This document shows positions 1 to 37,996 of a stretch of DNA of 64,000 bases, in pieces. The DNA is from a virus (lineage: Duplodnaviria > Caudoviricetes). The stretch covers positions 7,054 through 71,053 of IMG/VR virus record IMGVR_UViG_2824233761_000002; one strand, written 5' to 3'. Position numbers and translations under genes: made by a program. Positions within the stretch are counted from its first letter, which is position 1; every line of letters begins with the position of its first letter. The notes beneath the pieces are model-generated. The model saw only the letters and a list, made by a program, of their open reading frames with translations. It did not search any database and had not been told where the DNA came from.

Positions 1-1
1 G

Positions 2-1390
2 GCCGAGGTCCTCGGCGAGTTCGACGACAAGGACGGCGTGCGGCACTCCAGGTCCGCCGCCGTGGACGGCGCCGCCGTCGTCCTCAAGCCCGCCTTCCCG
101 GGCGCCCACATCACCAGCGTCGCGGCGTCGGCCGCACAGGAGGAGAACACCATGGAGTGCACCAAGTGCAGCAAGGTCCACGCCGAGGGCGTGACCGAGT
201 GCGCGACCCAGGCCGTGGCTGCCGCGTTCACCAAGGCCGACGGCGACCAGCTCATGGAGCAGGTCCAGGGCCTGTCCGAGAAGCTCGCCGAGCTGGAGAA
301 GATCAAGATCCCCGTCGGCCCGGGCGCCGCGCAGTTCCATGTGACCGAGGAGCCGATCTACCGGTTCGCCGGCACCGAGCCTGCCCCGTCCGGTCACGAC
401 TTCGCCACCGACCTCCTGGCCGCCGCCCGTGACGGCGACGCCGCCGCGTTCGCGCGGGTCCAGGAGTTCACCGGGCAGTACCTGGCCCCGACGTTCGCCG
501 ACCAGCCGACCACGACCGCCGACACCGCGGCGCTCAACCCGTCGCAGTACCGACCCGACATGTTCCTCGGCCAGGCGCCGATCCCGGCGAGCCCCCTGTA
601 CGACTTCTTCTACAAGGGGACGCGGACCGACGTCACCCCGTTCTTCTGGTCCAAGCTCGACCGGGCCAACACCGACATCGGGATCGCCGACCACACCGAG
701 GGCGTCGACCCCGAGGACCGCGACCTGGTGACCGTGGTCGGCGACACCGTCACCCCCAAGCCCGTCTCCGGCAAGGTCCACATCACCCGCGAGGTCGCCG
801 ACCAGGGCGGCAACCCCGTGGTCTCCGGGCTGGTCTGGTACGACTTCGAGCGCTCGTTCAAGGTCGCCCTGGAGGCCCGGACTGCCGCGCTGATCCAGGC
901 CGCGACCATCGCCGAGCTGGGCACCGCGATCCCGGCTGGCTCGACCGGCACCGTCGCGGGCGCGGCCGTCGAGGACGGTCTGATCGGGCTCCAGTTCCTC
1001 GCCGACGGCTACCGGTTCCAGCGCGCCTTCGGCCACGTCGACCTCTACAAGGCCCTCGCTGGCGCCACCAAGGGCGACGACAACGCCGACAAGCTGTACC
1101 CGATCATCAACCCCGAGAACGCCACCGGGCAGGCCGCCAGCAAGTGGGCCCACCTGAACATCGGCGGCTACGGCATGTACCCCGCCGCCAGCCTCGGCGC
1201 GACCGACGTCAACCAGAAGTCGATCGTCGCCGACCCCACCGCCGTGCACGTGTGGAACTCCGGCCTAACCCGGCTCGACAAGCTCCAGGAGTCCGTCGAG
1301 GGCTGGGACCTGGGCGTCTTCGCCTACTGGGCCGGGATCGTCTACGACGCCACCGGCCTCCGCAAGATCACGTTCGACAAGAGTGCCTGA
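2..1390 (+). CDS. Prohead protease-major capsid fusion protein (5' partial)
   Basis: Frame is open from nt 2; VVLKPAFPGAHITSVAAS resembles the end of an HK97-type protease and runs without a stop into a capsid-like region; internal ATG at 152 with AGGAG could give a capsid-only product. Confidence 0.75.
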   Translation, partial: AEVLGEFDDKDGVRHSRSAAVDGAAVVLKPAFPGAHITSVAASAAQEENTMECTKCSKVHAEGVTECATQAVAAAFTKADGDQLMEQVQGLSEKLAELEKIKIPVGPGAAQFHVTEEPIYRFAGTEPAPSGHDFATDLLAAARDGDAAAFARVQEFTGQYLAPTFADQPTTTADTAALNPSQYRPDMFLGQAPIPASPLYDFFYKGTRTDVTPFFWSKLDRANTDIGIADHTEGVDPEDRDLVTVVGDTVTPKPVSGKVHITREVADQGGNPVVSGLVWYDFERSFKVALEARTAALIQAATIAELGTAIPAGSTGTVAGAAVEDGLIGLQFLADGYRFQRAFGHVDLYKALAGATKGDDNADKLYPIINPENATGQAASKWAHLNIGGYGMYPAASLGATDVNQKSIVADPTAVHVWNSGLTRLDKLQESVEGWDLGVFAYWAGIVYDATGLRKITFDKSA

Positions 1391-1665
1391 TGAGTGCCGA
1401 TGGGGTCAGCACTGCTGACATCACAGACCAGGCAGGTGCGACATACGTCGCACCTGCGAGCACGTCGCCGAAGCAGCGGGCCGCGAAGGTCGGCACCACG
1501 ATCACGGTCGATGTCCCCAAGGGCGCCGACCGGGTCGAGGTGGTCCGGCCCGACGGCTCCACGGTGAGTGTCCGGGCCCGCCGTGGCCGGGCGGTCTACG
1601 TGCTCGACCGGCCCGGGGTCCACGTGGTGGCCGGCGAGACGGTGCATGCGAAGGCCGGGGGCTGA
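1390..1665 (+). CDS. Small virion-associated protein
   Basis: TGATG coupling to the capsid gene; 91 aa; position in head module. Confidence 0.65.
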   Translation: MSADGVSTADITDQAGATYVAPASTSPKQRAAKVGTTITVDVPKGADRVEVVRPDGSTVSVRARRGRAVYVLDRPGVHVVAGETVHAKAGG

Positions 1666-1668
1666 GCC

Positions 1669-2016
1669 TTGGCCGCCGACCTCTACCTCTACCCGGTGGA
1701 TCGCATCCGCGACTACGTCGGAGAGAGCGTCATCACCAAGCACGGTGCGGCGGCGTTCGACGCCGCCGTCCGCGCCGAGCAGATGACGCAGGCAGGCGCC
1801 TGCCGAGTCCCCGCTGACGATGACGAGACTCCCGAGGCCCAGCAGATCCGCGAAGTCCTGGCCGAGGCACTGTGTCGGCGGGTGGCGGTCAACCTGGCGC
1901 GGCGCGGCCTGCCGCTGGGCATGCAGATGAGCGACGTCGGCCCGGCCCGGCTCACCACCAACGACCCTGAGGTCCGTCGCCTGGAGGGCCCGTACCGAAA
2001 GCTGGTCGTCGGATGA
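1669..2016 (+). CDS. Head-tail connector protein
   Basis: Synteny; EALCRRVAVNLARRGLPLG and DPEVRRLEGPYRKLVVG are typical of actinophage adaptors. Confidence 0.7.
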   Translation: MAADLYLYPVDRIRDYVGESVITKHGAAAFDAAVRAEQMTQAGACRVPADDDETPEAQQIREVLAEALCRRVAVNLARRGLPLGMQMSDVGPARLTTNDPEVRRLEGPYRKLVVG

Positions 2017-2360
2017 GCGCCGCCGAGATCCGGGCCGCGCTCGCCGAGGCGGCCTCCACGGTCGAGGGGGTCGTCTGCACCCCGACCTATGTGCAGCTAT
2101 CTGCCCTCGGCGAGTCCTGCGTGCAACGCGAGCGGATCACCTACCCCAACGTCTTCGGCGGCGTGGGGAGCTGGAACGTCGTGGTCTGCCTGGGCCAGGA
2201 CATGGCGGTCGCAGAGACCTTCTTCGACGACAAGGTGCCTGCCGTCGTCGAGGCGCTGGGGCCGGTCATGCAGGTCAAGAGCGCGGCCCTCAACAAGCTC
2301 AACCTCGTCGACGGCGCGACCGCGCTGGCGGCATTTATCAACGGCTTCCGGGAGGAATGA
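2013..2360 (+). CDS. Head-tail joining / tail terminator protein
   Basis: ATGA overlap; position before the major tail gene. Confidence 0.55.
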   Translation: MSAAEIRAALAEAASTVEGVVCTPTYVQLSALGESCVQRERITYPNVFGGVGSWNVVVCLGQDMAVAETFFDDKVPAVVEALGPVMQVKSAALNKLNLVDGATALAAFINGFREE

Positions 2361-2782
2361 CCATGGTTGCACTCGGCACACGCGAGCTCGAGCTGTCCAT
2401 CGGTGGCGAGGACGTCACCGCGCAGATCACCAACTGCGAGATCCTGTCCAACCCCGCGGAGTCGGAGCAGACCACGTTCGCCGAGGCGAAGACCGGCGGC
2501 CCCCGGAGGTACTCGCTCAAGGGCGTGCTCCTTCAGGACACCTCCGACGGCAGCTTGTGGGATCAGATCTGGTCGGCGGCCGGCACGACCGTCGCGGTGC
2601 TCCTCAAGCCCTACGGCGGTGCCGCGACCGCGGACAAGAAGCACTACTCCGGCAACGTCGTGATCAAGGATCCCGACGGCACCCTGCTCGGTGGCGACGC
2701 CGACGCGTCGACCACCGGCCGGTGGACCGTCGAGATCGAGTGGGACTTCACCGCGAAGCCCACCGCGGTCACCGGCCCCTGA
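2357..2782 (+). CDS. Major tail protein
   Basis: 141 aa beta-rich protein (DVTAQITNCEI...WTVEIEWDFTAKP); synteny. Confidence 0.75.
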   Translation: MTMVALGTRELELSIGGEDVTAQITNCEILSNPAESEQTTFAEAKTGGPRRYSLKGVLLQDTSDGSLWDQIWSAAGTTVAVLLKPYGGAATADKKHYSGNVVIKDPDGTLLGGDADASTTGRWTVEIEWDFTAKPTAVTGP

Positions 2783-2797
2783 TCAGGGGCGGCTGAC

Positions 2798-3181
2798 ATG
2801 GCACGGGCGGCCGGGTTCAAGGTCGAGGGCCTGAACTCGGTCGTCCGCGCCCTCCAGCAGCTCGGCGCCGACGTCGAAGACCTCAAGGACGTCTTCAGCG
2901 AGATCGCCGCCACGGGCGCCGACATCGCCGCCGACCACATCGATAGCGACACCGGTCGCGCCGCCTCCACGGTGCGCGGGAACCGCGCCAAGAACAAGGC
3001 CGTTGTCGCCGCCGGCTCCGCATCGGTGCCCTACCTCGGAGTCATCAACTACGGCTGGCCCGAGCGCGGCATCGAAGCCCAGGAGTTCATGCAGAGCGCC
3101 GACGACCAGCTCCAGCCCATCGCCGTCCAGCTCCTCGAGGACGGCATCAACGCCAAGATCAAGGAGAAGAACTTCCGATGA
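2798..3181 (+). CDS. HK97 gp10-like neck protein
   Basis: VEGLNSVVRAL, DTGRAASTVR and PYLGVINYGWP motifs. Confidence 0.7.
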   Translation: MARAAGFKVEGLNSVVRALQQLGADVEDLKDVFSEIAATGADIAADHIDSDTGRAASTVRGNRAKNKAVVAAGSASVPYLGVINYGWPERGIEAQEFMQSADDQLQPIAVQLLEDGINAKIKEKNFR

Positions 3182-3537
3182 CCACCACACCCCAGTCCAC
3201 CGCCCCCGCTCCGCAGACCGAGCTGTCGCTGTCGGAGGTCATCGACGGCATGGACGGCTTCGACGAGCTGGCCGTGGAGAAGCACTTCGACGACTTCAAC
3301 GTCTACGACGTCGTCGGCGCCCAGGGCGGCGCCCGGCCCCGCGACATGGTCAAGGCCCTGCGTGTCGGGGTCTTCCTGGTCCGCCGCACCGAGGGCGCCA
3401 ACGACAAGGACGCCTACCAGGCCGCGATGAAGATGCCGGGCAAGAAGCTCCACGAGTTCTTCCCCGACGACCCCGAGGAGATCGACCCCGACGACCCGGA
3501 CACGGACGCGGGAAAAGACGACTCCGAGCCCGCCTGA
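3178..3537 (+). CDS. Tail assembly chaperone (short form; -1 frameshift product ends at 3668)
   Basis: Lies before TMP; slippery G_GGA_AAA at 3510-3516; -1 frame open to 3668. Confidence 0.8.
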   Translation: MTTTPQSTAPAPQTELSLSEVIDGMDGFDELAVEKHFDDFNVYDVVGAQGGARPRDMVKALRVGVFLVRRTEGANDKDAYQAAMKMPGKKLHEFFPDDPEEIDPDDPDTDAGKDDSEPA

Positions 3538-3667
3538 GGGCCTACGACACGGGGATGTGGTGCTTCATCACCCGACAGCCCCCCGAGGTCTACCAGCGGC
3601 TCACCCGGCTGGAGCGTGAGCAGTTCGCCAAGGCCGCGATCGACGCGGCGAAGAAAGGGTGGGTGTG

Positions 3668-6430
3668 ATGGCCGGTCCGATCCGGATCTCCGTCCTGGCG
3701 AACGCCTCCCAGGCCAACCGCACGTTCGCCTCGGTCGGCACCACCGTGAACGGCGTCTCCGCCCGCGTCGGCCGCGCCGGCAAGGTCATGGGCCTGGCCG
3801 TTGCCGCCGGTGCAGCGGTGGCCGGCGTCGCGGCGCTGAAGTTCGGCAAGGACTCGGTCAAGGCCGCCAGCGACGCCCAGCAGTCCCTCGGCGCGACCGA
3901 GACCGTGTTCGGCCGGTACGCCGACACAGTCATCGCCCGCTCCAACAAGGCTGCCCGCGCGATCGGCCTCAGTGCGAACGAGTACCGCGAACTGTCCAAC
4001 GTCGTCGGCGCCTCACTGACCGGTGCCGGCGTGCCGCTCAAGAAGACGACGGCCCTCACCGACCAGCTCAACCGCCGGGCCAGCGACATGGCCGCCACGT
4101 TCGGTGGCACCACCCGCGAGGCCGTCGAATCGATCTCCTCGCTGATGCGGGGCGAGGCCGACCCGATCGAGCGCTACGGCGTCTCGATCAAGCAGGTCGA
4201 CGTCAACGCCCGACTCGCGGCCAAGGGCCAGGACAAGCTCACCGGCGCCGCGCTCAAGTCCGCCGAGATGCAGGCCCGGCTCGACCTGCTGATGCAGAAG
4301 ACCGCCCGCACCCAGGGCGCGTTCGCCCGCGAGGGCAACACCCTGGCCCACCAGCAGCAGGTGCTGGGCGCCCAGTGGGAGAACCTGAAGGCCCGGGTCG
4401 GGTCCGCGCTGCTGCCCGTGCTGACCCGGCTGCTGACCCTGGTCAACGACAACCTCGGCCCCGCGTTCAACGCCGTCGTGGGCTACCTCGCGCCCCTGGT
4501 CGCCCGGTTCAAGGACCTCACCGGAGGCGCCAACGGCAGCAACGCCGCAGTCGCGGCCATCACCGCGTTCTTCACCGGCCGGCTGATCCCCGCCGTCCAG
4601 GCCGTCATCGGCGCCTACCAGCGGTTCTACGCCACCTTCATCCCGATCATCGAGCAGGTCGCCGCGGCCATCGCCGCGAAGTGGTCGACCATCGCCCCGC
4701 AGGTCCAGGCGATCTGGGACTCGGTGAAGAACATCATCACCAGCGCCCTGTCGATCGTGCAGTCCGTCGTCACGGCCGCGACCGCCGTGGTGCTCGCAGT
4801 GTGGGGCAAGTTCGGCGCGACCATGACGAAGTTCACCGCCACCGCGCTCGGGAACCTCGTCACCACCCTGCGCGGCGCGTTCAAGATCATCGAGGGCGTC
4901 TTCAAGGTCGTCTCCTCCGCGCTGCGGGGCGACTGGAAGGGCGTGTGGGACGGAATCAAGAAGATCCTGTCCGGCGCCCTGACGGTCATCAAGGGCAGCC
5001 TGGCGCAGGCATGGAACCTGATCCGCACCGCCGCCTCGGTCGCCTGGTCCGCGCTGAAGGTCATCATCGCCAAGGCGTGGGAGGGTGCCAAGGCCGCGGT
5101 CCGCAACGGCATCCGCGGCTCGGTGCAGCTCGTCACCGCGCTGCCCGCCAAGATCGTCGGCGCGATCCCCAAGCCGCGGACCATCCTGTCCGAGGTCGGC
5201 GGGTTCATCATCGAGGGCCTGCGCAACGGCATCTCCGCCGCCGGTCACCTCGTCACCGACGCGGTCGAGGCGATCGTCAACAAGATCCCCAAGAAGATCC
5301 GCCAGATGATGGGGATCGCGTCCCCCTCGAAGGTGATGCGTGCCCTGGCCCGGTGGATCCCCGCCGGCATCGCCCGCGGCATCCTCGACGGCCTCGACGG
5401 CATCAAGGCCGCGATCGACGCCGTCGGCCGCTTCATCACCAAGACCCTGGACCGCCAGCTCGCCGCCCGCGAGAAGGCGATCAAGAAGCGGCTGGACGGC
5501 AAGGCCGAGACCAAGGCCCTCAAGCGGATCCGGATCGAGTGGGACCGCCACTCCAAGACCGTCGTGCGGTCGGTGCGCGACGAGAACGCCGCGCTGGCCG
5601 CCAACGGCCGCGCCCAGGACCGGCTCACCGCACGACTGGAGAAGGCCACGACCGCGCTCGACGCGGCCCGGCAGGCGTACTTCGACTACGCCGCCGCGGT
5701 CAAGGACGCCGTGGTCGACACCGGGGGCCTGTTCGCCCTGGCCGAAGCCGAGGGAAGCGACGGGTCGCTCGCCTCGATCATCGCCGGCCGCACCGAGGCA
5801 CTCGCCAAGGCCGAGCAGTGGGCCAAGGTCATCAACTCCCTGCGCGGTCGGCTCAACGACACCGACCTGCGCGAGCTGATCGACAAGGGCGTCGCCGGGC
5901 TCGCCACCGCCGAGGCCATCGCCTCAGGCGGACCCGACGCCATCATCGCGCTCAACGCCCTGCAGGACCGCCTCTCCGCGGTCGGGAAGAGCGTCGGGCT
6001 CAGTGCAGCGGACCAGTTCTACGGCGCCGGAGTCGAGGCCGCCCGCGCCACCGCCGCCGGCCTGGAGTCCCAGGCCGACAAGCTCGACAAGGCAGCTAAG
6101 AAGCTCGCCAAGGCCCTGATGAAGGCCGTGAGGAAGGCCCTGGCCGAGGAGCTGAACGGCAAGACCGGCGGCAAGAAGACCCAGGGCCTCCAGATCGACG
6201 TCGACCAGACCCACGCCCGCCGTCAGGGCGCCGCGCTGGCCACCAGCCTCCGCAGGGGCTTCGGCGTCCCCGCCCTCGACGCCTGGGCCACCAGTGGCGG
6301 CGCACAGGCCCGCGAGCAGCGCTTCTCGATCCAGTTCACCGCCGACCAGGTCGACCAGCTGATCCGCGGCGGCCGCGTCGACGCCGACATCACCGCCTAC
6401 CACCGGGCCGGAGGAAGGACCCTCACGTGA
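3668..6430 (+). CDS. Tape measure protein
   Basis: ~920 aa Ala-rich helical protein; MAGPIRISVLANASQA start; GIASPSKVM motif. Confidence 0.9.
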   Translation: MAGPIRISVLANASQANRTFASVGTTVNGVSARVGRAGKVMGLAVAAGAAVAGVAALKFGKDSVKAASDAQQSLGATETVFGRYADTVIARSNKAARAIGLSANEYRELSNVVGASLTGAGVPLKKTTALTDQLNRRASDMAATFGGTTREAVESISSLMRGEADPIERYGVSIKQVDVNARLAAKGQDKLTGAALKSAEMQARLDLLMQKTARTQGAFAREGNTLAHQQQVLGAQWENLKARVGSALLPVLTRLLTLVNDNLGPAFNAVVGYLAPLVARFKDLTGGANGSNAAVAAITAFFTGRLIPAVQAVIGAYQRFYATFIPIIEQVAAAIAAKWSTIAPQVQAIWDSVKNIITSALSIVQSVVTAATAVVLAVWGKFGATMTKFTATALGNLVTTLRGAFKIIEGVFKVVSSALRGDWKGVWDGIKKILSGALTVIKGSLAQAWNLIRTAASVAWSALKVIIAKAWEGAKAAVRNGIRGSVQLVTALPAKIVGAIPKPRTILSEVGGFIIEGLRNGISAAGHLVTDAVEAIVNKIPKKIRQMMGIASPSKVMRALARWIPAGIARGILDGLDGIKAAIDAVGRFITKTLDRQLAAREKAIKKRLDGKAETKALKRIRIEWDRHSKTVVRSVRDENAALAANGRAQDRLTARLEKATTALDAARQAYFDYAAAVKDAVVDTGGLFALAEAEGSDGSLASIIAGRTEALAKAEQWAKVINSLRGRLNDTDLRELIDKGVAGLATAEAIASGGPDAIIALNALQDRLSAVGKSVGLSAADQFYGAGVEAARATAAGLESQADKLDKAAKKLAKALMKAVRKALAEELNGKTGGKKTQGLQIDVDQTHARRQGAALATSLRRGFGVPALDAWATSGGAQAREQRFSIQFTADQVDQLIRGGRVDADITAYHRAGGRTLT

Positions 6431-8331
6431 GCAGCCAGACGTTCCACACCCTCGACGTGCTCCGCCTCGAGGTCGAGCAGCCACCCGCCACCGGCCTGCG
6501 GAACCGGATCAAGAACCCCGACGGCGTCGGCGGCGGCTGGGGCTGGATCACCCCCCAGACGAACCAGAACATCGGCGGCCTGGTCGACGGCTCCGGCCCC
6601 TACCTGTCGTTCGCCTCGATGGACACGTTCATGCCCGGGGAGTTCGGGTCCGAGCCCATCCCCGCCCGGCCCGGCCAGTGGGTCAACTGGCGCGCCGAGG
6701 TCCGGTCCACCAACCGCAGCTACCAGATCGGCCTCCAGCACCTCAACGCCGACGGGACCGTCGTCGGTGGGTTCATGCTGCTGGCCTCTACCGCCACCGG
6801 CGTCCGGTCCGGGTCCGCACACCAGATCACCGACCCCACCGTCGTCGCCGTCCGCCTCCGCGCCTACCAGGTCGGCGGAGGCGCGCCGCCCTGGGGCTTC
6901 TCCTGGCGCAAGGCGATGGTCGCGGTCGAGGACACCAACACCGGCATGACCGGCATGGCCTACACCGAGACCCAGTGGGTCAACATCCTCGGCAAGTCCC
7001 ACAGCGTCCAGATCGAGCGGTCAGAGCTCAACCTCGGCATCCTCGCCGCGGTCGTCTACGACGCCGACCTCGACCCCGCCCAGGCCGGCGTCCACCTCGG
7101 CCAGGGCATCCGCGCCCACGCCCTCGTCGCAGGCTCCTGGGAGCCCCTGCACGTCGGGTCGCTGACCAACGCCCGCGCCGAGTACAACCCCCTGGCCACC
7201 GACGTCGACAAGCGCGCCAAGATCACCCTCACCGCCACCGACGCCGCCGGCACCCTGGGCCGGGTCCCGCGCCCCGACGGCGTGGCCACCATCCCCGACC
7301 TCATCGGCGTCCTGGAGGGCGCCGGAGTCCCGTGGAACATCAACGGCTCCACCAGCCAGCGGTTCCCCGGACCCACCGTCTCGACCAACCCCGACGCCCG
7401 CGCGATCGACCAGGTCGCGATCACCCGCGACACCGTCCACGGCTACGCCTGGATCTCCCGGGCCGGGGTGCTCACCGCCTGGGACGCCGACCAGCTCCCC
7501 ACCGGCGTGGCCGCGGTCCTCGACGAGGACGACATGACCGCCCTCTCGATCGACTACGACACCGACCGGTGTATCAACATCGTCACGGTCAAGTACCTCC
7601 GGCCGGGCGGCGAGGAGGTCACCTACGGCCCCTACGTCGACCAGGCCAGCCGCGAGCAGTGGGGCGAGCACACCGCCGAGTTCACCGTCCACGGCATCCC
7701 CGAGACCGAAGCCAACATGGCCGCGTTCGCCAACGCCGTGTTCGCCGCCAACGCCACACCCCAGCGGCGCGTCAACACCGTCACCCTCCCGGTCCGCACC
7801 CCGGCCGAGCTGCCCAAGACGCTGCTCGACCTCTACGACCTCGTCACCGTCCAGAACGCCGACCTCGACCTCGACCAGTCGATGCGGATCACCGGCGTGC
7901 GGCACCAGATCGCCACCGACCGATGGTCGGTCACCCTCGAGTTCGCCGCCCAGGGCGGGGTCGCACCGCCCCAGCAGACCCCATCAGCGGGCCCGACGGT
8001 GGCTGCCGGAGCGGGTGAGTGGGTCGCCGCGGCTCCGACGAACGGGTGGACCGGCGCGGTCTACTACAACGTCGCGGACGGCATGTGCACGGCGATCCTC
8101 GACCTGTTCAAGACGGCGTGGGGTGCCGAGGTCATGGCCCAGCTCCCACCAGGCGCCATCCCCAAACCGGCGTTGCCCGCGGGCATGTACTTCTACGGGC
8201 TGTCGCGGGACACCGGCGCGCAGGCGCCGTTCTGGGTGGGCGTCGGCGGTGACATCGGCTGTGTCTTCGGGTCCGCCGTCACTGGTGGCGGCGGGATCAC
8301 CGGAACCATCACCTACCCCGTGCGCCGATAA
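6427..8331 (+). CDS. Minor tail protein
   Basis: 634 aa directly after TMP; C-terminal GTITYPV tail-fibre-like end. Confidence 0.75.
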   Translation: MSSQTFHTLDVLRLEVEQPPATGLRNRIKNPDGVGGGWGWITPQTNQNIGGLVDGSGPYLSFASMDTFMPGEFGSEPIPARPGQWVNWRAEVRSTNRSYQIGLQHLNADGTVVGGFMLLASTATGVRSGSAHQITDPTVVAVRLRAYQVGGGAPPWGFSWRKAMVAVEDTNTGMTGMAYTETQWVNILGKSHSVQIERSELNLGILAAVVYDADLDPAQAGVHLGQGIRAHALVAGSWEPLHVGSLTNARAEYNPLATDVDKRAKITLTATDAAGTLGRVPRPDGVATIPDLIGVLEGAGVPWNINGSTSQRFPGPTVSTNPDARAIDQVAITRDTVHGYAWISRAGVLTAWDADQLPTGVAAVLDEDDMTALSIDYDTDRCINIVTVKYLRPGGEEVTYGPYVDQASREQWGEHTAEFTVHGIPETEANMAAFANAVFAANATPQRRVNTVTLPVRTPAELPKTLLDLYDLVTVQNADLDLDQSMRITGVRHQIATDRWSVTLEFAAQGGVAPPQQTPSAGPTVAAGAGEWVAAAPTNGWTGAVYYNVADGMCTAILDLFKTAWGAEVMAQLPPGAIPKPALPAGMYFYGLSRDTGAQAPFWVGVGGDIGCVFGSAVTGGGGITGTITYPVRR

Positions 8332-8368
8332 GTGCTGCTCACCCCGTCCCCCCGAGAGAGGAACCCGC

Positions 8369-8620
8369 ATGACCTGGTACACCCGCCGCAGCTGGCGAGC
8401 CCGATCCGGGTCCGCGTGTTCATCGACGGCATCCAGATGGGCGACGCGGTCATCATCCCGGCCAGCACCGGTCAGCACCGGTCAGCACTACGCGGTGATC
8501 CCGCTCACCGGCCGAGTCCAGGTCTCTGCCGGGACCCACTACGTGCAGTTCGTCTCCGCCGGTGGGTTCTCCAACGGCGACGACTTCGGGTCCTTCTACG
8601 GCGTCGTCACCCCCACCTGA
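8369..8620 (+). pseudogene. Chimeric remnant: amidase-like endolysin N-terminal stub joined to a tail-fibre C-terminal fragment
   Basis: RBS GAGAGG then MTWYTRRSWRARSG (PGRP/amidase-like start); abrupt switch at ~8410 to VRVFIDGIQMGDAVIIPASTGQH; 10-bp duplication at 8463-8482. Confidence 0.55.
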
Positions 8621-8622
8621 CC

Positions 8623-9342
8623 ATGACCGCCACCGTCGCCGAGACCGCCACCCTCGCCTGGGGCTACACCATGGCCGACGTGGACAGGCTCGCCCGCTTT
8701 ACGGCACGCATCCGCAACACCTCGCTCGTCGGCTTCGATGAGCGCTACGAGACGGCCTGGCTCGCAATCATCGAGCGCCTGTACGACGGCCCGGAGATGC
8801 CCACCAGCGAAGACCTCATCCAGGTCGGCAAGGGCGCCATCCGCGACGAGGTCAACGCGCTGCTCCATCACCGCGGCATCAACAACTACACCTACCAGGA
8901 CACGCCGAACTCCTGGAAGTACTGGAGCGTCATCTCAGCCGCCGACGAAGACTTCACAGGCCGACTCGTCGAGCGCCTCGCGCTCCCACAGGTGCTCGCC
9001 CTGCTCACCCCTGGCGAGTACGAGGCCATCGCCGCCCTAGCCGCCAACGGCACCCAGGCTGCTGCTGCCGCTGCGGTCGGGATCAAGCCGTCGGCGTTCA
9101 CCGCCCGTATCGCTCGGGCGCGCCAGCGGATCATTGAGGCGTGGTTCGAGCACGAGACCCCGCGAAAGTCGACCACGAAGGGCAACGACATCGCGTGTAG
9201 CGCCGGACACCCGCGGGCCACTCACAGCACGAAAGACAGCCTCGGCCACTGGGATTGCCGCACCTGCCGTCGGAGACGAGACCTAGCGGGCTACCACCGC
9301 CGCAAGCCGCTGGCCAAGACGTCTGCCGCCGCCCTGGACTAG
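8623..9342 (+). CDS. Sigma-70-like factor with C-terminal Cys/His zinc-binding motif
   Basis: ERYETAWLAIIE (region 2-like); LALLTPGEYEAIAALA...AAVGIKPSAFTARIARARQRI (region 4 HTH); C-x2-GH...CRTC tail. Confidence 0.65.
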   Translation: MTATVAETATLAWGYTMADVDRLARFTARIRNTSLVGFDERYETAWLAIIERLYDGPEMPTSEDLIQVGKGAIRDEVNALLHHRGINNYTYQDTPNSWKYWSVISAADEDFTGRLVERLALPQVLALLTPGEYEAIAALAANGTQAAAAAAVGIKPSAFTARIARARQRIIEAWFEHETPRKSTTKGNDIACSAGHPRATHSTKDSLGHWDCRTCRRRRDLAGYHRRKPLAKTSAAALD

Positions 9343-9450
9343 CCGGCCCGCGCCACTGGTCGGCGTTTCATGGGATCCCATGAGGTGCTGGTCGGCGTAC
9401 AGCCCACGCTCAGCGCACGCGTTTGCGCAGGTCAGAACCGGCGTACACCA

Positions 9451-9482
9451 AGAACGCCCCCGGCCGAAGCCAGGGGCGTTCT
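9451..9482. terminator. Intrinsic terminator-like hairpin
   Basis: AGAACGCCCC...GGGGCGTTCT 10-bp stem between convergent genes. Confidence 0.6.
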
Positions 9483-9528
9483 GGTGAGGTGACCAAGGGG
9501 TGTACACACTGCGTACCCCCTCTCTCGG

Positions 9529-10092
9529 TCAGCGCGTCGCGTAGGCCAGCCCGAGCTTGCCCTCCACCGCTGTGCCACACGTCAGGTCCCGCCACAGCTG
9601 CTCCAGCGGGCCATGCAGCCTGTCCAACGGCTGGCGCTCGTCAAGCTCGACCACCCAGCGGTCGCCCTCGTCGAATCGCCTGAGCAGCCCGGCGTGACGT
9701 GCCCCCGGCGGCGGACACTGCCCCACGCAGGTGCACTCCGGCAGCGGGGCATCGGGGTTCTGGAAGCGCCACCCCAGCGAGACGCAGGACTCCTCGCGCG
9801 GGTCCAAGCACCACGGCATCACCGACCACCGCACGTCCACGTCACCCCGGTCCTCCAGCAGCCGCAGGTAGCGCTGCGTCTCGGCACACGCGGCCCGGAG
9901 CGCGTCCTCCCTGACCCCATAGTGTCCGTCGACGCCGGCCTGCACGTGCCGGTACGTCTGACCGCACCCGGCGCAACGCAAGGCGTCCCGATACAGCCAG
10001 ACGTACCCGCGCCCATGATCTCGCGCCTTCGCACTTCGGGCCGTCCCGCACGCCAGGCACATCGCCACCACCTCGACGATCTGCACGCTCAT
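9529..10092 (-). CDS. Hypothetical protein with N-terminal zinc ribbon
   Basis: CxxC...CxxC motifs; ATGA overlap with the upstream ORF. Confidence 0.55.
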   Translation of the reverse strand: MSVQIVEVVAMCLACGTARSAKARDHGRGYVWLYRDALRCAGCGQTYRHVQAGVDGHYGVREDALRAACAETQRYLRLLEDRGDVDVRWSVMPWCLDPREESCVSLGWRFQNPDAPLPECTCVGQCPPPGARHAGLLRRFDEGDRWVVELDERQPLDRLHGPLEQLWRDLTCGTAVEGKLGLAYATR

Positions 10093-10499
10093 GCCTGGGC
10101 CTCCAGACGCGCGATGACGCTAGGACGGCAGTTCGGGCAGACGTCAGCGGTGTCTGCCGCCGTCCGGATGCGAATCACTGCCCTCGGCTTCGGCCAGGCC
10201 CAGCGCCCGCAGAATGCGAGGTACTGCACCCCCATTTCACGGGCAACCGTGATACGTCCCACCGGCGCAGAGTGCAGCCAGGCGTCCGGCTCGACCATGT
10301 TGTCGGCGCCGGCAATATGGTCGGTGGTCTGCGGCTGCGCGGGCTTCCCCACCCGCGAGCCGCCCTGAGATGATTCGGTCACGATGTTGCCTCCTTGGAA
10401 GGCGATGTCGAGGCCCTCGGCTGGTGTTCCCGCACCACCGGGGGCCGCTCTTGCATGTTGACAAATCGAGACGCTACTACCGCCCTTGCAGTTTGACAA
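10089..10499 (-). CDS. Hypothetical Cys-containing protein (start uncertain, possibly 10298)
   Basis: ORF coupled to 9529-10092; FCG...CPNC motif. Confidence 0.4.
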   Translation of the reverse strand: MSNCKGGSSVSICQHARAAPGGAGTPAEGLDIAFQGGNIVTESSQGGSRVGKPAQPQTTDHIAGADNMVEPDAWLHSAPVGRITVAREMGVQYLAFCGRWAWPKPRAVIRIRTAADTADVCPNCRPSVIARLEAQA

Positions 10500-10513
10500 G
10501 TAGGATGGCGCTC

Positions 10514-10696
10514 ATGCCTGAACACCTGATGGGCGCGACCGAGATCGCGGAGTTGCTGGGCGTCACCAGACAGCGCGTGCAGCAGCTCGCCAAGACCGCC
10601 GGCTTCCCGGCGCCCTACGACGTCCTCACAATGGGAGCCGTCTGGCTCAAGGCCGACATCGAGCGCTGGGCGCGGGAGACGGGTCGGATCGAGTAG
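10514..10696 (+). CDS. AlpA/excisionase-like HTH protein
   Basis: LMGATEIAELLGVTRQRVQQLAKTAGFPAP...VWLKADIERW; TAGGAT -10 box 7 nt upstream (leaderless). Confidence 0.75.
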   Translation: MPEHLMGATEIAELLGVTRQRVQQLAKTAGFPAPYDVLTMGAVWLKADIERWARETGRIE

Positions 10697-10821
10697 GGCG
10701 GTCCGCAGACAGTCCGCAGGACACTCACCAACTGCCGTCAACCACAGTCACTCCCCATGCACCATCGATGCAGGTCAGAGCGGCGTTTGTGGCCAGATCA
10801 CGCTGGACGGAGCCCCTGCGT

Positions 10822-11580
10822 GCGGTCAACATCCGCAAGTTCGTGGTCCGCGCCGGCCGGCTCGGCGAGCTGGTCGAGCTGGGCAGCCTGACCCCCACCG
10901 CGGCGACGTTCCTCGAGGCGTCGGTGCGCGCCGGCCTCAACATCATCACCACCGGAGGAACGCAGGCCGGCAAGACGACCATGCTCAACTGCCTGGCGGC
11001 CGCGATCCCCGGCGGCGACCGGGTGGTGTCGGCCGAGGAGGTGTTCGAGCTGCGCTTCCCCCACCCCGACTGGGTCGCCCTGCAGACCCGGCAGTCCGGC
11101 CTGGAGGGCACCGGGGAGATCCGGCTGCGCGACCTGGTCAAGGAGAGCCTGCGGATGCGGCCGAGCCGGATCATCGTCGGCGAGGTCCGGGCCGAGGAGT
11201 GCCTCGACCTGCTGCTCGCGCTCAACGCCGGGCTGCCGGGCATGTGCACGATCCACGCCAACAGCGCCCGCGAGGCGCTGGTCAAGATGTGCACCTTGCC
11301 GCTGCTGGCCGGCGAGAACATCTCGGCCCGGTTCGTGGTGCCCACCGTCGCCGCGTCCGTCGACCTGGTCGTGCACCTGGGCGTCGACGAGCGCGGCGTA
11401 CGCCGGGTCGACGAGATCGTCGGGGTGCCGGGCCGGGTGGAGCAGCACGTGATCGAGACCGAGACGGTCTTCGAGCGCCGCGGCGGCGAGCTGCGGCGTA
11501 CCGGCGGGCTGCCTCCCCATCTGGAGCGGTACGAGCGGGCCGGCATCGACCTGCACCGGATCCTGGCCGGCGCGTCCTGA
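10822..11580 (+). pseudogene. tadA: TadA/CpaF pilus assembly ATPase, 3' fragment
   Basis: AVNIRKF, Walker A GGTQAGKTT, EEVFEL, LRMRPSRIIVGEVR, CTIHANS; N-terminal domain absent and replaced by phage DNA (ORF 10768-11580 begins in the prophage). Confidence 0.85.
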
Positions 11581-12431
11581 TGGGCGCGCTCGTCGGCCTC
11601 GGGGTGGGCATCGGCCTGCTGCTGGTCTGGAGTGCATTCTTCCTGCCGCGGCGCGGCCCCACCGCGCCCCGCGCCCGGCGGACCACCGACCTGCTGGCGC
11701 GCGCCGGGCTCGGCCAGGTGTCGGCGACCGGGTTCGTGCTGCTCTGCGCCGCGTGCGGGGTGGGCACGACCCTGGTGATGCAGGTCGTCTCCGGCACGCC
11801 GCCGGTGGCGCTCGCCTTCGGCGCGATGGGCGGCTGCCTGCCGGTCGCCGTGGTGTCCGGCCGCGCCCGGCGGCGCCAGCGCGAGCTCGCCGAGGTCTGG
11901 CCGGAGGCCGTCGACAACCTGACGTCGGCCGTGCGCGCGGGCATGTCGCTGCCCGACGCCCTGGCCGGGCTGGCGGTGCGCGGCCCGGTGCCGCTGCGGG
12001 CCGCCTTCGACCAGTTCGCGCTCGACTACCAGGTGACCGGCCGGTTCGGGGAGTCGCTCGACCGGCTCAAGGAGCGGCTCGCCGATCCCGTCGGCGACCG
12101 TGTCGTCGAGGGCCTCCGGGTCGCGCGCGAGGTCGGCGGCGGCGAGCTCGGCCGACTGCTGCGCAACCTCTCGACGTACCTGCGCGAGGACCTGCGCACC
12201 CGCTCCGAGATGGAGTCGCGCCAGGCCTGGACGGTCAACGGCGCCCGGCTGGCCGTCGCGTCGCCGTGGCTGGTGCTGCTGCTGATGTCGCTCCAGCACG
12301 ACGTGATCCGGCGCTACGCGTCGCCGGTCGGCGTGGTGGTCCTCGTGGTGGGCGCCGGCATCTGCCTGGTGGCCTACCGGCTGATGATGCGGATCGGCCG
12401 ACTGCCCGTCGAGCGACGGATCCTGTCGTGA
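11580..12431 (+). CDS. tadB: Tad pilus assembly protein TadB (T2SS F family)
   Basis: N-terminal TM; WPEAVDNLTSAVRAGMSLPDAL; two C-terminal TMs; coupled to tadA. Confidence 0.9.
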   Translation: MGALVGLGVGIGLLLVWSAFFLPRRGPTAPRARRTTDLLARAGLGQVSATGFVLLCAACGVGTTLVMQVVSGTPPVALAFGAMGGCLPVAVVSGRARRRQRELAEVWPEAVDNLTSAVRAGMSLPDALAGLAVRGPVPLRAAFDQFALDYQVTGRFGESLDRLKERLADPVGDRVVEGLRVAREVGGGELGRLLRNLSTYLREDLRTRSEMESRQAWTVNGARLAVASPWLVLLLMSLQHDVIRRYASPVGVVVLVVGAGICLVAYRLMMRIGRLPVERRILS

Positions 12432-13363
12432 CACCGGCCTGGTGGGGAGCCCTGCTCGGCGCGACCGCCGCCGGCGGGCTGCTGCTCGTCGCGGTCCGGG
12501 TCCGCGCCATCCGGCGCCCGCAGCTCGCGCACCGGGTGCTGCCCTACCTCCGCGACCTGCCCTCGCTCGACGGCGCCGGCGACCGGCCCGGACCCACGCC
12601 CGTGCCGGCCGCGGTCGGCGTCTTCGGCCCGCCCCTGCGCTCGGCGGCCGACGCGGTCGAGCGGGTACTCGGCGGTGCCACCGCCGTCGAACGCCGGCTG
12701 GCCCGGGCCGGCATCGACCGGTCGGTGCACGAGTTCCGGGTCGAGCAGGTCGTGTGGGGGCTGGTCGCCTTCGCGGCGACGGCGGCCCTCGCGCTGCTGC
12801 GCACCCTCACCGACCCCGGCAGCCTGCTGCTGTGGGTGGTCGCGTGCGCGATCGCGTTCGTGGCGGGGGTGCTCGCCCGCGACAGCCACCTGACTGGCCA
12901 GGTGCGCAGCCGCGAGCGGCGAATGCTCGCCGAGTTCCCGGCCGTCGCCGAGCTGTTGGCCCTCGCGGTCGCCGCCGGCGAGAGCCCGGTGATGGCGCTC
13001 GACCGCGTCGTACGACGCAGCGGCGGCGAGCTGTCCCGCGAGCTGGGCCGGGTGCTGGCCGCCGTGCGCACCGGCGAGCCGGTCGCGGCGGCCTTCGACG
13101 GGCTCGCCGCGCGCAGCGGGCTGCCGGTCGTCTCGCGCTTCGCCCAGGGTGTCGCGGTCGCCGTCGAGCGCGGCACCCCACTCGCCGATGTGCTGCACGC
13201 CCAGGCCGCCGACGTCCGCGAGGCCGGCCGCCGCGAGCTGATCGAGTCGGCCGCCCGGCGCGAGGTACTGATGATGACGCCCGTCGTCTTCCTGGTGCTG
13301 CCGGTGACCGTGATCTTCGCGTTCTGGCCCGGGGTGGTCGGGCTGTCGCTGACCACCCCCTGA
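12428..13363 (+). CDS. tadC: Tad pilus assembly protein TadC (T2SS F family)
   Basis: EFPAVAELLALAVAAGES; ERGTPLADVLHAQA; C-terminal TM; GTGA overlap with tadB. Confidence 0.9.
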   Translation: MTPAWWGALLGATAAGGLLLVAVRVRAIRRPQLAHRVLPYLRDLPSLDGAGDRPGPTPVPAAVGVFGPPLRSAADAVERVLGGATAVERRLARAGIDRSVHEFRVEQVVWGLVAFAATAALALLRTLTDPGSLLLWVVACAIAFVAGVLARDSHLTGQVRSRERRMLAEFPAVAELLALAVAAGESPVMALDRVVRRSGGELSRELGRVLAAVRTGEPVAAAFDGLAARSGLPVVSRFAQGVAVAVERGTPLADVLHAQAADVREAGRRELIESAARREVLMMTPVVFLVLPVTVIFAFWPGVVGLSLTTP

Positions 13364-13384
13364 CGTCCCACAAGGAGGAACCCG

Positions 13385-13492
13385 ATGAACGACCTGGTCC
13401 TGGCCCTGATGGCCCGGCTCTCCCCACGCGAGCGCGACGAGCGCGGCGACGTGCCGGGGTGGGTGATGATTTGTGTCGTGAACGGGCCCTGA
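13385..13492 (+). pseudogene. flp: Flp-type pilin gene, 5' fragment truncated by prophage 2
   Basis: RBS AGGAGG; MNDLVLALMARLSPRERDERG|DVPGWVMI (class III signal) then CVVNGP-stop in place of the hydrophobic helix. Confidence 0.75.
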
Positions 13493-13495
13493 TGC

Positions 13496-14995
13496 CTACC
13501 GCTCCCAGACGCCCTTCACCACAACGTCCGCGCGCGGCCGCCCCGTCCACACCCGCACCGGCCGGATCAAGTCACGCAGCACCTCCCGCCGGTGCTCCAC
13601 CGGCCGGTCATCCCACGACCCCAGCAGATCCTGCGCGATCCCCACCGGATCCGACGGCCCCCGCCGCGCCGACACCGCAGCGTCCTCATGCGCGGCCTGC
13701 AACTGATCCCGCTTCTCCACCAGGCCCGCCACCGTCTTGGCGTAGACCTCCGGCGGCAGCGGCGCCGACGCGTTCGACAGGGCCAGCTGCTGCAGCTCGG
13801 CATCGACGCGCGCGACAGCCCGGGCGAGTCGGTCCGCCTCCGACCTCGAGGCGGTGACGCGGGCCTCGGCAGCCAGGGCGACGTTGCGCCGCTCGTCGAC
13901 CTCGCCGGCGAGGTCGACGAGCCAGGCGTAGACCTTGTCCTCGACGTGCGACGCCATCACGTACCCGCCCTTGCACACGGCTGGGCCGATCTCCTTGCCG
14001 TTCTGGCACCGGTACTTGGGGACCCGATAGGCGCCGAACTGGCCGGCGACCATCGATCCTCCGCACCGACCGCAGCGGATCAACCCGGAGAGCAGGTACT
14101 GCGACCGGATCGTCCGGGCCGGCCTCGCAGCCCTGAGTCGCCGGGCGTCGAGGTATGCCTGCCACAGCTCTTGGTCGATGACGGGCTCGTGGACGCCAGG
14201 ATGCAGGGTCGGCTCGATCTTCCGGGCCCGGTCGCCGCCGGCGAGGAAGGACCCGGTCGCGAAGCCGGAGTCGAGGACGCGGCGCAGCGTACGGTCCGAC
14301 CACGGCCCGGGGTCCTTCTTCCCGTACCCACCGACGGTCAGGTGGCCATGAGCGTTGAGCCACCGCACCAGCTGGTAGACGGACTCGCCGGCGACGTAGC
14401 GGCGGTACATGTCCGCGAGGACGGGGGCGGTGACCGGATTAGGAACGTGGAGCTTCTTCTCGCGGTCGTAGACGTAGCCGAACCGATCTTTCCCGGTCGG
14501 CGGCCGGCCGGCGCGAACCCGTGAAGCGTGGACCTCCTTCCACACCTCCCCGATGCGCTCGGCCTCGAACGCCTGGAGCTCGGCGAGCATCCCGCGGGCG
14601 AGCCGGCCGCTCGAGGTGGTGGTGTCGAACTGCTCAGTGGCGGACTCGAGCCGGCCGCCGGCCTCTTCGACGCGGTCGATCGCGACGGCCCACCGGAGCC
14701 GGTGGCGTGCCGCGCGGGAGTACTTCCAGACGACGAGGACGTCGTACTCCCCCGCTTCGATGGCGGCGACGGCCTGGTCGAGGCGGGGCCACCAGGCGGA
14801 GCGGGCGCGGGATCCGGACTCGTCGATGCCTTCGAGCCAGCCGGCGATCTCGTAGCCGCGGGTGGCGGCATAGTCGATGATCGCGGTGCGCTGGACCTCC
14901 GGGGAGATCATCCCTTCACGTTCCTGGGAGACCCGCACGAGCCCGAGCGCCCTCGGTGGGGCTTCGGGGACGACGCGCAGCTGACGCCCGGTCAT
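13496..14995 (-). CDS. Large serine recombinase (integrase)
   Basis: LVRVSQ catalytic Ser; VWKYSRAAR; recombinase domain; LSGLIRCGRCG zinc ribbon; coiled coil. Confidence 0.95.
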   Translation of the reverse strand: MTGRQLRVVPEAPPRALGLVRVSQEREGMISPEVQRTAIIDYAATRGYEIAGWLEGIDESGSRARSAWWPRLDQAVAAIEAGEYDVLVVWKYSRAARHRLRWAVAIDRVEEAGGRLESATEQFDTTTSSGRLARGMLAELQAFEAERIGEVWKEVHASRVRAGRPPTGKDRFGYVYDREKKLHVPNPVTAPVLADMYRRYVAGESVYQLVRWLNAHGHLTVGGYGKKDPGPWSDRTLRRVLDSGFATGSFLAGGDRARKIEPTLHPGVHEPVIDQELWQAYLDARRLRAARPARTIRSQYLLSGLIRCGRCGGSMVAGQFGAYRVPKYRCQNGKEIGPAVCKGGYVMASHVEDKVYAWLVDLAGEVDERRNVALAAEARVTASRSEADRLARAVARVDAELQQLALSNASAPLPPEVYAKTVAGLVEKRDQLQAAHEDAAVSARRGPSDPVGIAQDLLGSWDDRPVEHRREVLRDLIRPVRVWTGRPRADVVVKGVWER

Positions 14996-15053
14996 TGCAG
15001 CGACGACGACCCGGCTACGGCGGATCGGTCCGCCACCCAACCCCGCGACCGAC

Positions 15054-15275
15054 TCATGCCGTCTCGTCCTCGTCGGCGGACTCGAACAGCCGATGGAGGT
15101 ACTCCTCGTGGTTGGCATACCGCATGCCGACGACCACGCCCTGCCCGATGATCCCGATGCCCCCGACGATGCTCGCGAGCACCAAGATGACGGTGCCGAT
15201 CGCTTGACCGTCCTCGGCTGCTGCGATGAGCCCACCGAGGATAGTCAGACCCACGCCAACGTAGATGTACGTCAT
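15054..15275 (-). CDS. Small two-TM membrane protein
   Basis: MTYIYVGVGLTILGGLIAA...VILVLASIVGGIGIIG; typical int-adjacent membrane gene. Confidence 0.6.
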   Translation of the reverse strand: MTYIYVGVGLTILGGLIAAAEDGQAIGTVILVLASIVGGIGIIGQGVVVGMRYANHEEYLHRLFESADEDETA

Positions 15276-15326: not shown

Positions 15327-15791
15327 CTAGATGGTGATGGTCGCGAGCTGCTCGTCGAGGTACGCCCGCTCGCGGGGCGTGAGGGAGCTGAGCCGGACGG
15401 CGAGCGTGTCGTCGTCGACCCAGAGCTCCCAGGCTGCCTTCTCGTGGTCGGCCTGATGCCAGGCCAGCGCGTGCCCGATCCACCGGATGCTCGGCGCCAG
15501 GAGCCGGCCGACCTTGCGGTCGATGATCAGCTCCTCCCTCATCCGCCGATCCGGAGCGCACGGGCCCCGAACGATGTGCTGGGTCTCGTGGGCGATGGTG
15601 CACCGGCGCTCGGCCTCGTCGAGGCCGTTTGCGAGATACACCCGCCGCTCGTCGAAGCTGGTCAGCCCCCACTGCCCGTCCGGAAGGTCGTCGGTCCAGA
15701 CCAGCCGCCAGTCGCGGTAGGTCCCGAAGACGCGCCACGGATGGTGCCGGTGGCGGCGGGGATCGCGGAAGACGTGGATGGGGTCGACCAT
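15327..15791 (-). CDS. ImmA/IrrE-family zinc metallopeptidase (putative antirepressor)
   Basis: RRCTIAHETQH (HExxH) and E...DRKVGRLL; located between integrase and repressor. Confidence 0.85.
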   Translation of the reverse strand: MVDPIHVFRDPRRHRHHPWRVFGTYRDWRLVWTDDLPDGQWGLTSFDERRVYLANGLDEAERRCTIAHETQHIVRGPCAPDRRMREELIIDRKVGRLLAPSIRWIGHALAWHQADHEKAAWELWVDDDTLAVRLSSLTPRERAYLDEQLATITI

Positions 15792-15799
15792 GACCCGGG

Positions 15800-15821
15800 A
15801 CCGTAGAGCCGACCGCCGACA
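15800..15821 (-). promoter_or_regulatory. PafBC-type (RecA-NDp) DNA-damage promoter of the ImmA-like gene
   Basis: Minus strand TGTCGG-cggtcggctc-TACGGT, 8 nt before the ATG at 15791; exact TGTCGG-N10-TANNNT. Confidence 0.75.
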
Positions 15822-15837
15822 CTCGCTGTCCGGATGT

Positions 15838-16308
15838 CTAGCGGGGCTCCATGTCGTCGGGGTCGTCCGGTTCGGGCTCCCCCGCGCGTTCGGCGTTTCG
15901 CTGGCGCTGCTGGTTTTTCGAGACCTTCCCGGTCGTACGCGCGGCTGACCGTAGTCCGGTCAGTGCAGGCGCGCTGGTGGCGGCGGTGTCTCCACCGTGC
16001 TCACCCCTCTCCTCTGCTCGTCGGAGGATCTCCTTGATGAGCTCCACCTCGTCGAGTGAGCTGAGGGACGGCACCGCCGTCGGCCGCACCCGGGCCTCTT
16101 CCTCGGTCAGGAAGTCCGCCGCCACGAATGCCTCAAGGATCGGGCGGCCGTAGGCACGAGCGAACGCTGCCACCTGCTTGGCGTCCGGCGACTTGATGCC
16201 GCCGTTCTTCCATCGCGCGATCGACGGCTCAGTGACGCCGACCTTCTGCGCGATGACGCGGTTGACCTCGCCGCTGCTCCAGCGTGCGACGTACTCGCTC
16301 CAGCTCAC
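15838..16308 (-). CDS. Prophage immunity repressor (XRE HTH)
   Basis: NRVIAQKVGVTEPSIARWKNG; divergent from cro; TACGGT 6 nt upstream of the GTG (leaderless). Confidence 0.85.
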   Translation of the reverse strand: MSWSEYVARWSSGEVNRVIAQKVGVTEPSIARWKNGGIKSPDAKQVAAFARAYGRPILEAFVAADFLTEEEARVRPTAVPSLSSLDEVELIKEILRRAEERGEHGGDTAATSAPALTGLRSAARTTGKVSKNQQRQRNAERAGEPEPDDPDDMEPR

Positions 16309-37939: not shown

Positions 37940-37996
37940 CCTGCTGAAGATCCCCCACTCTCAGCCCAGATCCTCCGAAGTTGCGCACGAGAGGCG

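Follow-up and report, generated by a model that had tools for sequence, protein, structure and literature searches.

Two unrelated prophages interrupt one tad operon of Nocardioides, a landing pad for mobile elements across the genus

Why do two unrelated prophages lie within one pilus operon of the same chromosome, and does their meeting there call for a special explanation? We address this question for a 64,000-nucleotide stretch of the IMG/VR virus record IMGVR_UViG_2824233761_000002 (positions 7,054–71,053 of that record; here called the window), which is C1:923573-987572 of G000, the Nocardioides genome carrying both prophages. An earlier note on the window had proposed that two unrelated prophages flank a short stretch of a Tad pilus operon and that each splits a different pilus gene. 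Both proposals held: the host DNA between the prophages measures 2,645 bp with the borders corrected (10825-13469, holding tadA', tadB, tadC and flp'), and the split genes are tadA and a pilin-like gene, both of which are restored by in-silico excision. We are highly confident of this anatomy and of the genus-wide insertion hotspot described below, and we infer that the two hits in G000 are independent events in this hotspot and not a designed two-key switch.

Borders of the two prophages and the genes they split

The borders were mapped with the loci of eleven relatives having an uninterrupted operon. Intact loci of the same genus align to the window from 10822 to about 13470 only; the 5' 500 bp of the relatives' tadA is found at C1:915974-916475, 7.1 kb ahead of the window, the middle part at C1:934394-937040, and the downstream genes from C1:988898 on, 1.3 kb past the right edge of the window. 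Prophage 1 (C1:916476-934396, + strand) is 17.9 kb long, with its right 10.8 kb at window positions 1-10824 and its left 7.1 kb before the window start. It is bordered by an exact 16-bp repeat, GTCAACATCCGCAAGT, at C1:916460-916475 and at window positions 10825-10840, and the latter copy, the core of the right attachment site (attR, + strand), lies inside the TadA codons for AVNIRKF, with the intact site seen in one relative. A tyrosine integrase gene (C1:916520-917746; Pfam Phage_integrase, 1e-23, plus SAM-like domains) stands 45 bp from the left attachment site (attL), and both marks of integration by such an enzyme, a catalytic domain beside the attachment site and a direct-repeat core of at least 10 bp, are present. 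Unlike most elements with tRNA-targeting tyrosine integrases, prophage 1 brings no substitute 3' end for the gene that it enters.

Prophage 2 (C1:937042-988901, + strand; 51.9 kb) occupies window positions 13470-64000 and continues 1.3 kb past the window end. Its borders are an 8-bp core, GGTGATGA, at window positions 13462-13469 (the attL core, + strand) and the same 8-mer at C1:988902-988909. The reconstructed phage attachment site (attP) has a 9-bp perfect inverted repeat, CCGTTCACG/CGTGAACGG, on either side of the crossover, as expected of a serine integrase, and a large serine recombinase (LSR; here Int2) is encoded at 13496-15235 on the − strand (Pfam Resolvase 3e-21, Recombinase 6e-12 and Zn_ribbon_recom 1e-9). 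These coordinates are those of the longest open reading frame (ORF), and the real start is probably near 14950. The features of LSR integration, namely the three domains, a short core, the attP dyad and a cut target ORF, are found together in this prophage. The two prophages are phage-like and unrelated, with no mutual blastn similarity.

The host operon has the order tadA–tadB–tadC–pilin–tadE–tadE/F–tadG, which is conserved in Nocardioides, and third-position GC plots of the window (G+C content 71–76%) show three co-directional genes within 10.8–13.4 kb. The tadA 3' fragment (10768-11580, + strand) matches Pfam T2SSE (2.9e-29) at profile positions 106-273 only and holds TadA residues about 172-423, and with NCBIfam TIGR03819 the two TadA fragments cover positions 29-147 and 142-338. 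The earlier note had begun this fragment at 10768; the gene fragment itself stands, but bases 10768-10824 are phage DNA and not host, and the in-frame ATG with which the fragment opens is there by chance. From this ATG, 19 codons of phage origin lead in frame into the ATPase domain of tadA. Both T2SSF platform proteins of the Tad operon are present and intact, as tadB (11580-12431, + strand; Pfam T2SSF), which aligns contiguously with relatives, and tadC (12428-13363, + strand; Pfam T2SSF, 1.8e-16), and their starts are translationally coupled, with the ATG of tadB overlapping the tadA stop and the GTG of tadC overlapping the tadB stop.

The 5' fragment of the pilin-like gene, labelled flp in the earlier note, lies at 13386-13493 (+ strand) and reads MNDLV...ERGDVPGWVM, followed by seven phage-derived codons to the stop. 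In-silico removal of both elements gives an uninterrupted TadA of 423 amino acids and a pilin-like ORF of 56 amino acids. The restored shorter protein has a short charged leader and a single hydrophobic helix, and its homologues, which are intact in relatives, end in ...GDVPGWV[ML][IV]T[LV]M[ST]AG.... To the right of prophage 2, adjoining genes match Pfam TadE (4e-7) and Tad (TadE/G-like; 3e-7).

A hotspot for insertions across the genus

The earlier note had suggested a survey of Nocardioides genomes for interrupted tad genes, and the outcome was strongly positive. Our sample held 111 species genomes of the same genus (at least 90% completeness, one genome per species); a tadA orthologue was present in 102, and the operon was absent altogether from the other nine. 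The operon was interrupted in 23 of the 102 genomes (~22%), with 25 events at at least 11 sites, and five to six more, from assemblies that are fragmented or mixed, stand outside this event count. As a control we used the paralogous tadA of G000 (C1:26724-28224), which is similarly conserved and was contiguous in all of the ~93 genomes having it, so that 23/102 compares with 0/~93; for this control, Fisher's test gives p = 4.6e-6, a value to be read in the light of kin that are not independent.

Most insertions fall in tadA, which was split into complementary pieces in 18 of the 102 genomes at eight break positions (into three pieces in G083), with the pieces 8 to 135 kb apart or on two contigs. 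The break sites lie in or beside conserved motifs, namely EVWINDP, AVNIRKF, Walker A, the position just after EEVFEL, RMRPSRIIVGE and GLPGMCTIHA, and the tadA site of G000 is reused in G064, G076 and G152, as well as in G226 and G207 of a wider sample. A second query spanning tadB to tadG found further insertions in tadB (G080, G085) and at the 3' end of tadC (G093, G105, G151), and the pilin gene is intact beside the tadC insertions of G093 and G105.

The junctions of all resolved events were searched with Pfam-verified recombinases, which placed an LSR within about 200 bp of the junction in 22–23 of the 25 events and a tyrosine integrase at the junction in two (prophage 1 of G000, and G081). 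No recombinase was found in the 20-kb insertion of G092, which has a weak DDE transposase match and some nucleases. Inside the operon, which makes up about 0.1% of the genome, lie 25 of the 94 matches to PF07508 in the 111 genomes. The LSRs share about 25–40% identity between sites and 56–68% within one site. In G226, the LSR crossover at GTCAA falls within the same 16 bp used by the tyrosine integrase of G000. The integrase of prophage 1 has 40% identity with the tyrosine integrase of G081, which nevertheless enters tadA at another site.

This crowding could be neutral. The operon would then be a safe harbour, conserved yet in most habitats dispensable, where recombinases matching its motif DNA persist at little cost to the host and no element gains from the loss of the pilus. 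Such a reading accommodates the coincidence of the sites with the most conserved TadA motifs, the dispensability implied by the nine genomes of 111 without the operon, and a rate of double hits no higher than chance. However, it leaves unexplained why the paralogous tadA, which shares these motifs and is about as well conserved, should be hit in none of ~93 genomes, why two unrelated recombinase families should converge on the same 16 bp, and why a quarter of the LSR-domain matches of the genus should be concentrated in about 0.1% of the genome; the same bias to T2SSE and competence genes is also seen across bacteria (PMC10083194). We consider a neutral harbour unlikely.

The double hit of G000 looks different against this background. 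Two genomes with double hits were observed (G000 and G083), where 2.4–2.6 would be expected by chance from 24–25 events in 102 genomes. The earlier note had offered an AND-gate, in which pilus production needs two excisions, but no special logic of this kind is needed because the hotspot yields double hits at the chance rate, and a hotspot can by itself produce so striking an arrangement as a pair of prophages in a single operon. In G083 (C32:8400-34500), both insertions are inside tadA, are 10.8 and 14 kb long, and carry one LSR each.

The wider form of this idea is a reversible switch, or active lysogeny, by which conditional, non-lytic excision turns piliation on and both elements must excise in G000. 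Both pairs of attachment sites and the recombinase genes are intact here, and excision restores the ORFs exactly in silico; the gene halves are undecayed in G000 and in seven of seven relatives inspected, whose TadA halves give single stop-free alignments, as are the downstream genes; and comK, sigK and spsM provide precedents. Undecayed halves fit either recent insertion or sustained selection via reversibility. Yet besides the frequency of two hits, which equals chance, the orientation of the LSR genes gives no sign of capture of the tad promoter. Such capture by the recombinase gene was set aside as a candidate, with a ratio of about 5:4 among the site lineages (~5 co-oriented downstream of the tadA 5' fragment, ~4 divergent beside the 3' fragment). 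An LSR also needs a directionality factor in order to excise, and we identified no such factor; Nocardioides is not known to have a terminally differentiated cell type where excision would be cost-free. A switch of this kind appears very improbable to us.

A further case bearing on reversibility is G010, where the locus occurs in two copies (contigs C8 and C25) that are 96.9% identical, one with an intact tadA and the other with tadA broken exactly at the frequently used site after EEVFEL. As evidence of excision within one culture this genome was set aside, since copies of only 96.9% identity come from two strains, and G010 shows the presence and absence of an insertion at the strain level: insertions come and go between strains, which is turnover and not switching within a clone. 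We also note stray tadA fragments of 150–190 bp located 1–80 kb from an intact tadA (L071:1033-1191, G154:C1:3052824-3053006 and G062:C1:97828-97987), which earlier elements may have left behind as scars, or which such elements may carry as pieces of target DNA. Single tadA frameshifts in several metagenome-assembled genomes (L051, L064, L082, L085 and L093) could be sequencing or assembly errors and were left out of the count.

Many of the elements inserted in relatives are 8–15 kb long and, as LSR elements, resemble satellites more than tailed phages. Among those of 8–12 kb, several encode a Prim-Pol/AAA helicase; a TerL-like ATPase was seen in one and a gene with a RelA/SpoT domain in one, and it is because of this gene content that the small elements look like satellites and not phages. 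The last of these genes (L026:2611-3390; Pfam RelA_SpoT, 7.7e-17) lies in a 7.9-kb tadA element of G024 with an LSR and a Prim-Pol helicase, and may encode a small alarmone-synthetase toxin as cargo.

The content of the elements bears on another suggestion of the earlier note, that the Tad pilus is the receptor of these phages or of their helpers, so that integration destroys the receptor and guards against superinfection. In Caulobacter, phages are known to use Tad pili as receptors. Both G000 elements are tailed-phage-like, and the small LSR elements with Prim-Pol helicases, one with the TerL-like ATPase, may be satellites that share the receptors of helpers. However, a literature search found no Tad-dependent actinophage, and the published pattern across phyla favours competence over receptors. 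Receptor removal is distinctly unlikely in our view.

What the elements might gain

The small siphovirus-like prophage 1 recombined through its tyrosine integrase at the 16-bp core in the AVNIRKF codons, and the larger prophage 2 through its LSR at the 8-bp core in the pilin gene. As each insertion splits its gene, the lysogen is left without full-length TadA or pilin, and the operon is restored only by precise excision of both elements. In the genus at large, the operon acts as a landing pad, with most sites in the motif-coding stretches of tadA that are conserved. We propose that the hotspot exists since mobile elements gain by knocking out this pilus. The likeliest gain would be the loss of a Tad-type DNA-uptake pilus, after which the element could no longer be deleted by transformation. 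To our knowledge, natural transformation in Actinomycetota is understood mechanistically from Micrococcus luteus only, where it proceeds via Tad pili.

On balance, the explanation that we favour for the hotspot is targeted knock-out of the Tad pilus, whose likeliest role would be DNA uptake. Three observations suggest that pilus loss would benefit the elements: the paralogue is spared, unrelated recombinases converge on one gene, and a large share of the LSRs lies in the operon. The competence motive taken by itself is more tentative, and we would place it a little short of an even balance. A bolder extension, which we regard as doubtful, is that the Nocardioides tad operon is a working DNA-uptake pilus and the main battleground of transformation and integrative elements in the phylum, with some elements possibly serving as reversible switches of piliation as well. 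Were this true, one could read functional competence in soil actinobacteria from their genomes, with the density of recombinase landing sites as the marker.

Several points weigh against the favoured explanation. The likeness of the operon to the tad clusters of M. luteus is one of gene order alone, as taken from PMC4322843. The second split gene is also ambiguous: the earlier note had called it flp, and the splitting itself stands but the Flp identity does not, as the protein has no recognised family in Pfam, NCBIfam or the ESM Atlas (which returns unnamed actinobacterial clusters, the nearest named one being Flp1_like at 0.83 only) and the canonical Flp motif G/XXXXEY is absent from its 56 amino acids, which read ERG/DVPGWVM with no Glu at +5. 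The protein can thus be called pilin-like by position and shape only. Among the 102 genomes, moreover, G000 is the only one hit at the flp site, and the site of the second hit is thus not a recurrent one. Recombinases resembling Int2 had been considered as a recurrent flp-targeting lineage, an idea dropped on finding one weak relative, 40% identical, in 200 genomes.

On the same side of the argument, the surveyed species are related and hence not independent, with each represented by one genome. Read-through from prophage 1 could express the ATPase domain of TadA as a truncated protein, along with TadB and TadC, and some function may thus remain. Finally, comEC is found in G000 and in five genomes without this operon. 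The co-distribution of comEC had been taken up as a test of the competence link and was uninformative, since the gene occurs with and without the operon.

Whatever the motive, elements crowd one tad operon and spare its paralogue, which suggests that the operon has a function that the elements need to be off. The survey also provides about a dozen natural bacterial attachment (attB) sites, with a recombinase beside each, in a high-GC host.

Gene content of the prophages and comparison with known systems

Prophage 1 is a very small siphovirus-like prophage. Its integrase, TerL and portal genes sit in the left 7.1 kb, before the window start, and within the window PHROGs matches identify a neck protein (2798-3181) and a tape measure protein (3659-6430). 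The TerL had no match among 50,697 public phage records. At the right end, a gene with an HTH_17 domain (10514-10696, + strand; excisionase/MerR-like) scores E = 2.7e-5 with Pfam, just under the curated cut-off, and is a putative excisionase gene of this prophage; promoter-like TTGACA...TAGGAT lies upstream of it (region 10491-10840). A 14-bp perfect inverted repeat, TCTGACCTGCATCG / CGATGCAGGTCAGA, occurs at C1:916500-916513 and at window positions 10766-10779, that is, within the prophage at 24 bp from attL and 45 bp from attR, and may represent integrase arm or Xis sites.

Prophage 2 has an XRE repressor with a weak M78 peptidase match (15327-16308), replication genes for an exonuclease, a DNA polymerase exonuclease subunit and a DnaB-like helicase, and structural genes for TerL (36236), portal (37940), MuF (39653), capsid (43476) and a tape measure protein of 1,308 amino acids (48920), together with a protease. 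Phages of Arthrobacter, Brevibacterium and Glutamicibacter have similar portals. Among public records the portal (37940-39652) is best matched, at 69% identity, by one that bears the name Microcystis phage MinS1, and the host label of that record looks odd because the remaining matches are all actinophages at about 40%. The last gene of the prophage, beside attR, encodes a DUF3263 protein (C1:988570-988890; Pfam 1.8e-34), which might conceivably act as the recombination directionality factor.

Comparable prophages are those in Listeria comK (A118 and phi10403S), the skin element of Bacillus sigK and SPbeta in spsM, whose regulated excision takes place in the phagosome or the mother cell. The likeness to these is that of a serine-recombinase element in a host ORF that is regenerated by precise excision. 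Unlike them, the case described here involves two elements in one Nocardioides operon whose co-occurrence fits chance, and restoration is known here in silico.

Among the actinobacteria, mycobacteriophage Bxb1 in groEL1 and the Int-S prophages of M. abscessus use cores of 5–8 bp and disrupt the ORF that they enter (PMC8092301). They share with prophage 2 a serine integrase, a short core and a broken target ORF, but differ in their target genes, and no multi-site hotspot has been reported for them. In M. luteus, tad-1 and tad-2 are two clusters of the same gene order that are required for transformation (Angelov 2015, PMC4322843); it should be noted that the motif of the Nocardioides pilin-like protein is RG/DVPGW as against G/XXXXE[YFS] in the M. 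luteus comparison.

Prophages and islands in the pneumococcal comYC and in comFA, comEC, pilB, pilQ, comM and comK have been catalogued (PMC4774983; 2025 review PMC12378983), and the idea that transformation cures chromosomes of such elements, the chromosomal-curing hypothesis, was put forward by Croucher 2016 (PMC4774983). The Nocardioides insertions resemble these in the recurrent, gene-disrupting integration of diverse elements into a gene for a type IV filament or for uptake. The target differs in being a Tad/Flp-type operon in Actinomycetota, for which a role in DNA uptake would follow from M. luteus, and the review explicitly sets aside the M. luteus Flp/Tad pilus (PMC12378983).

A close parallel is provided by LSR mobile elements whose targets are comK, comG, comM and T2SSE-family genes, and to which a competence-knock-out strategy has been ascribed as a proposal (Durrant et al. 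2022, PMC10083194). In both settings, LSRs of divergent sequence meet in a single conserved family of host genes, whose members they disrupt. The parts of that study available to us are domain-wide in scope and do not single out actinobacterial tad operons. The earlier note had taken prophage insertion to be undescribed for actinobacterial tad loci, and this holds in so far as our literature search found no prophage or LSR insertion in actinobacterial or Nocardioides tadA, cpaF or tad loci, but the general rule has already been published; what is new here is the quantified multi-site hotspot. Compared with the published elements, those of Nocardioides enter one operon in one genus at at least 11 sites, account for about a quarter of the LSR-domain matches, and are joined there by elements with tyrosine integrases.

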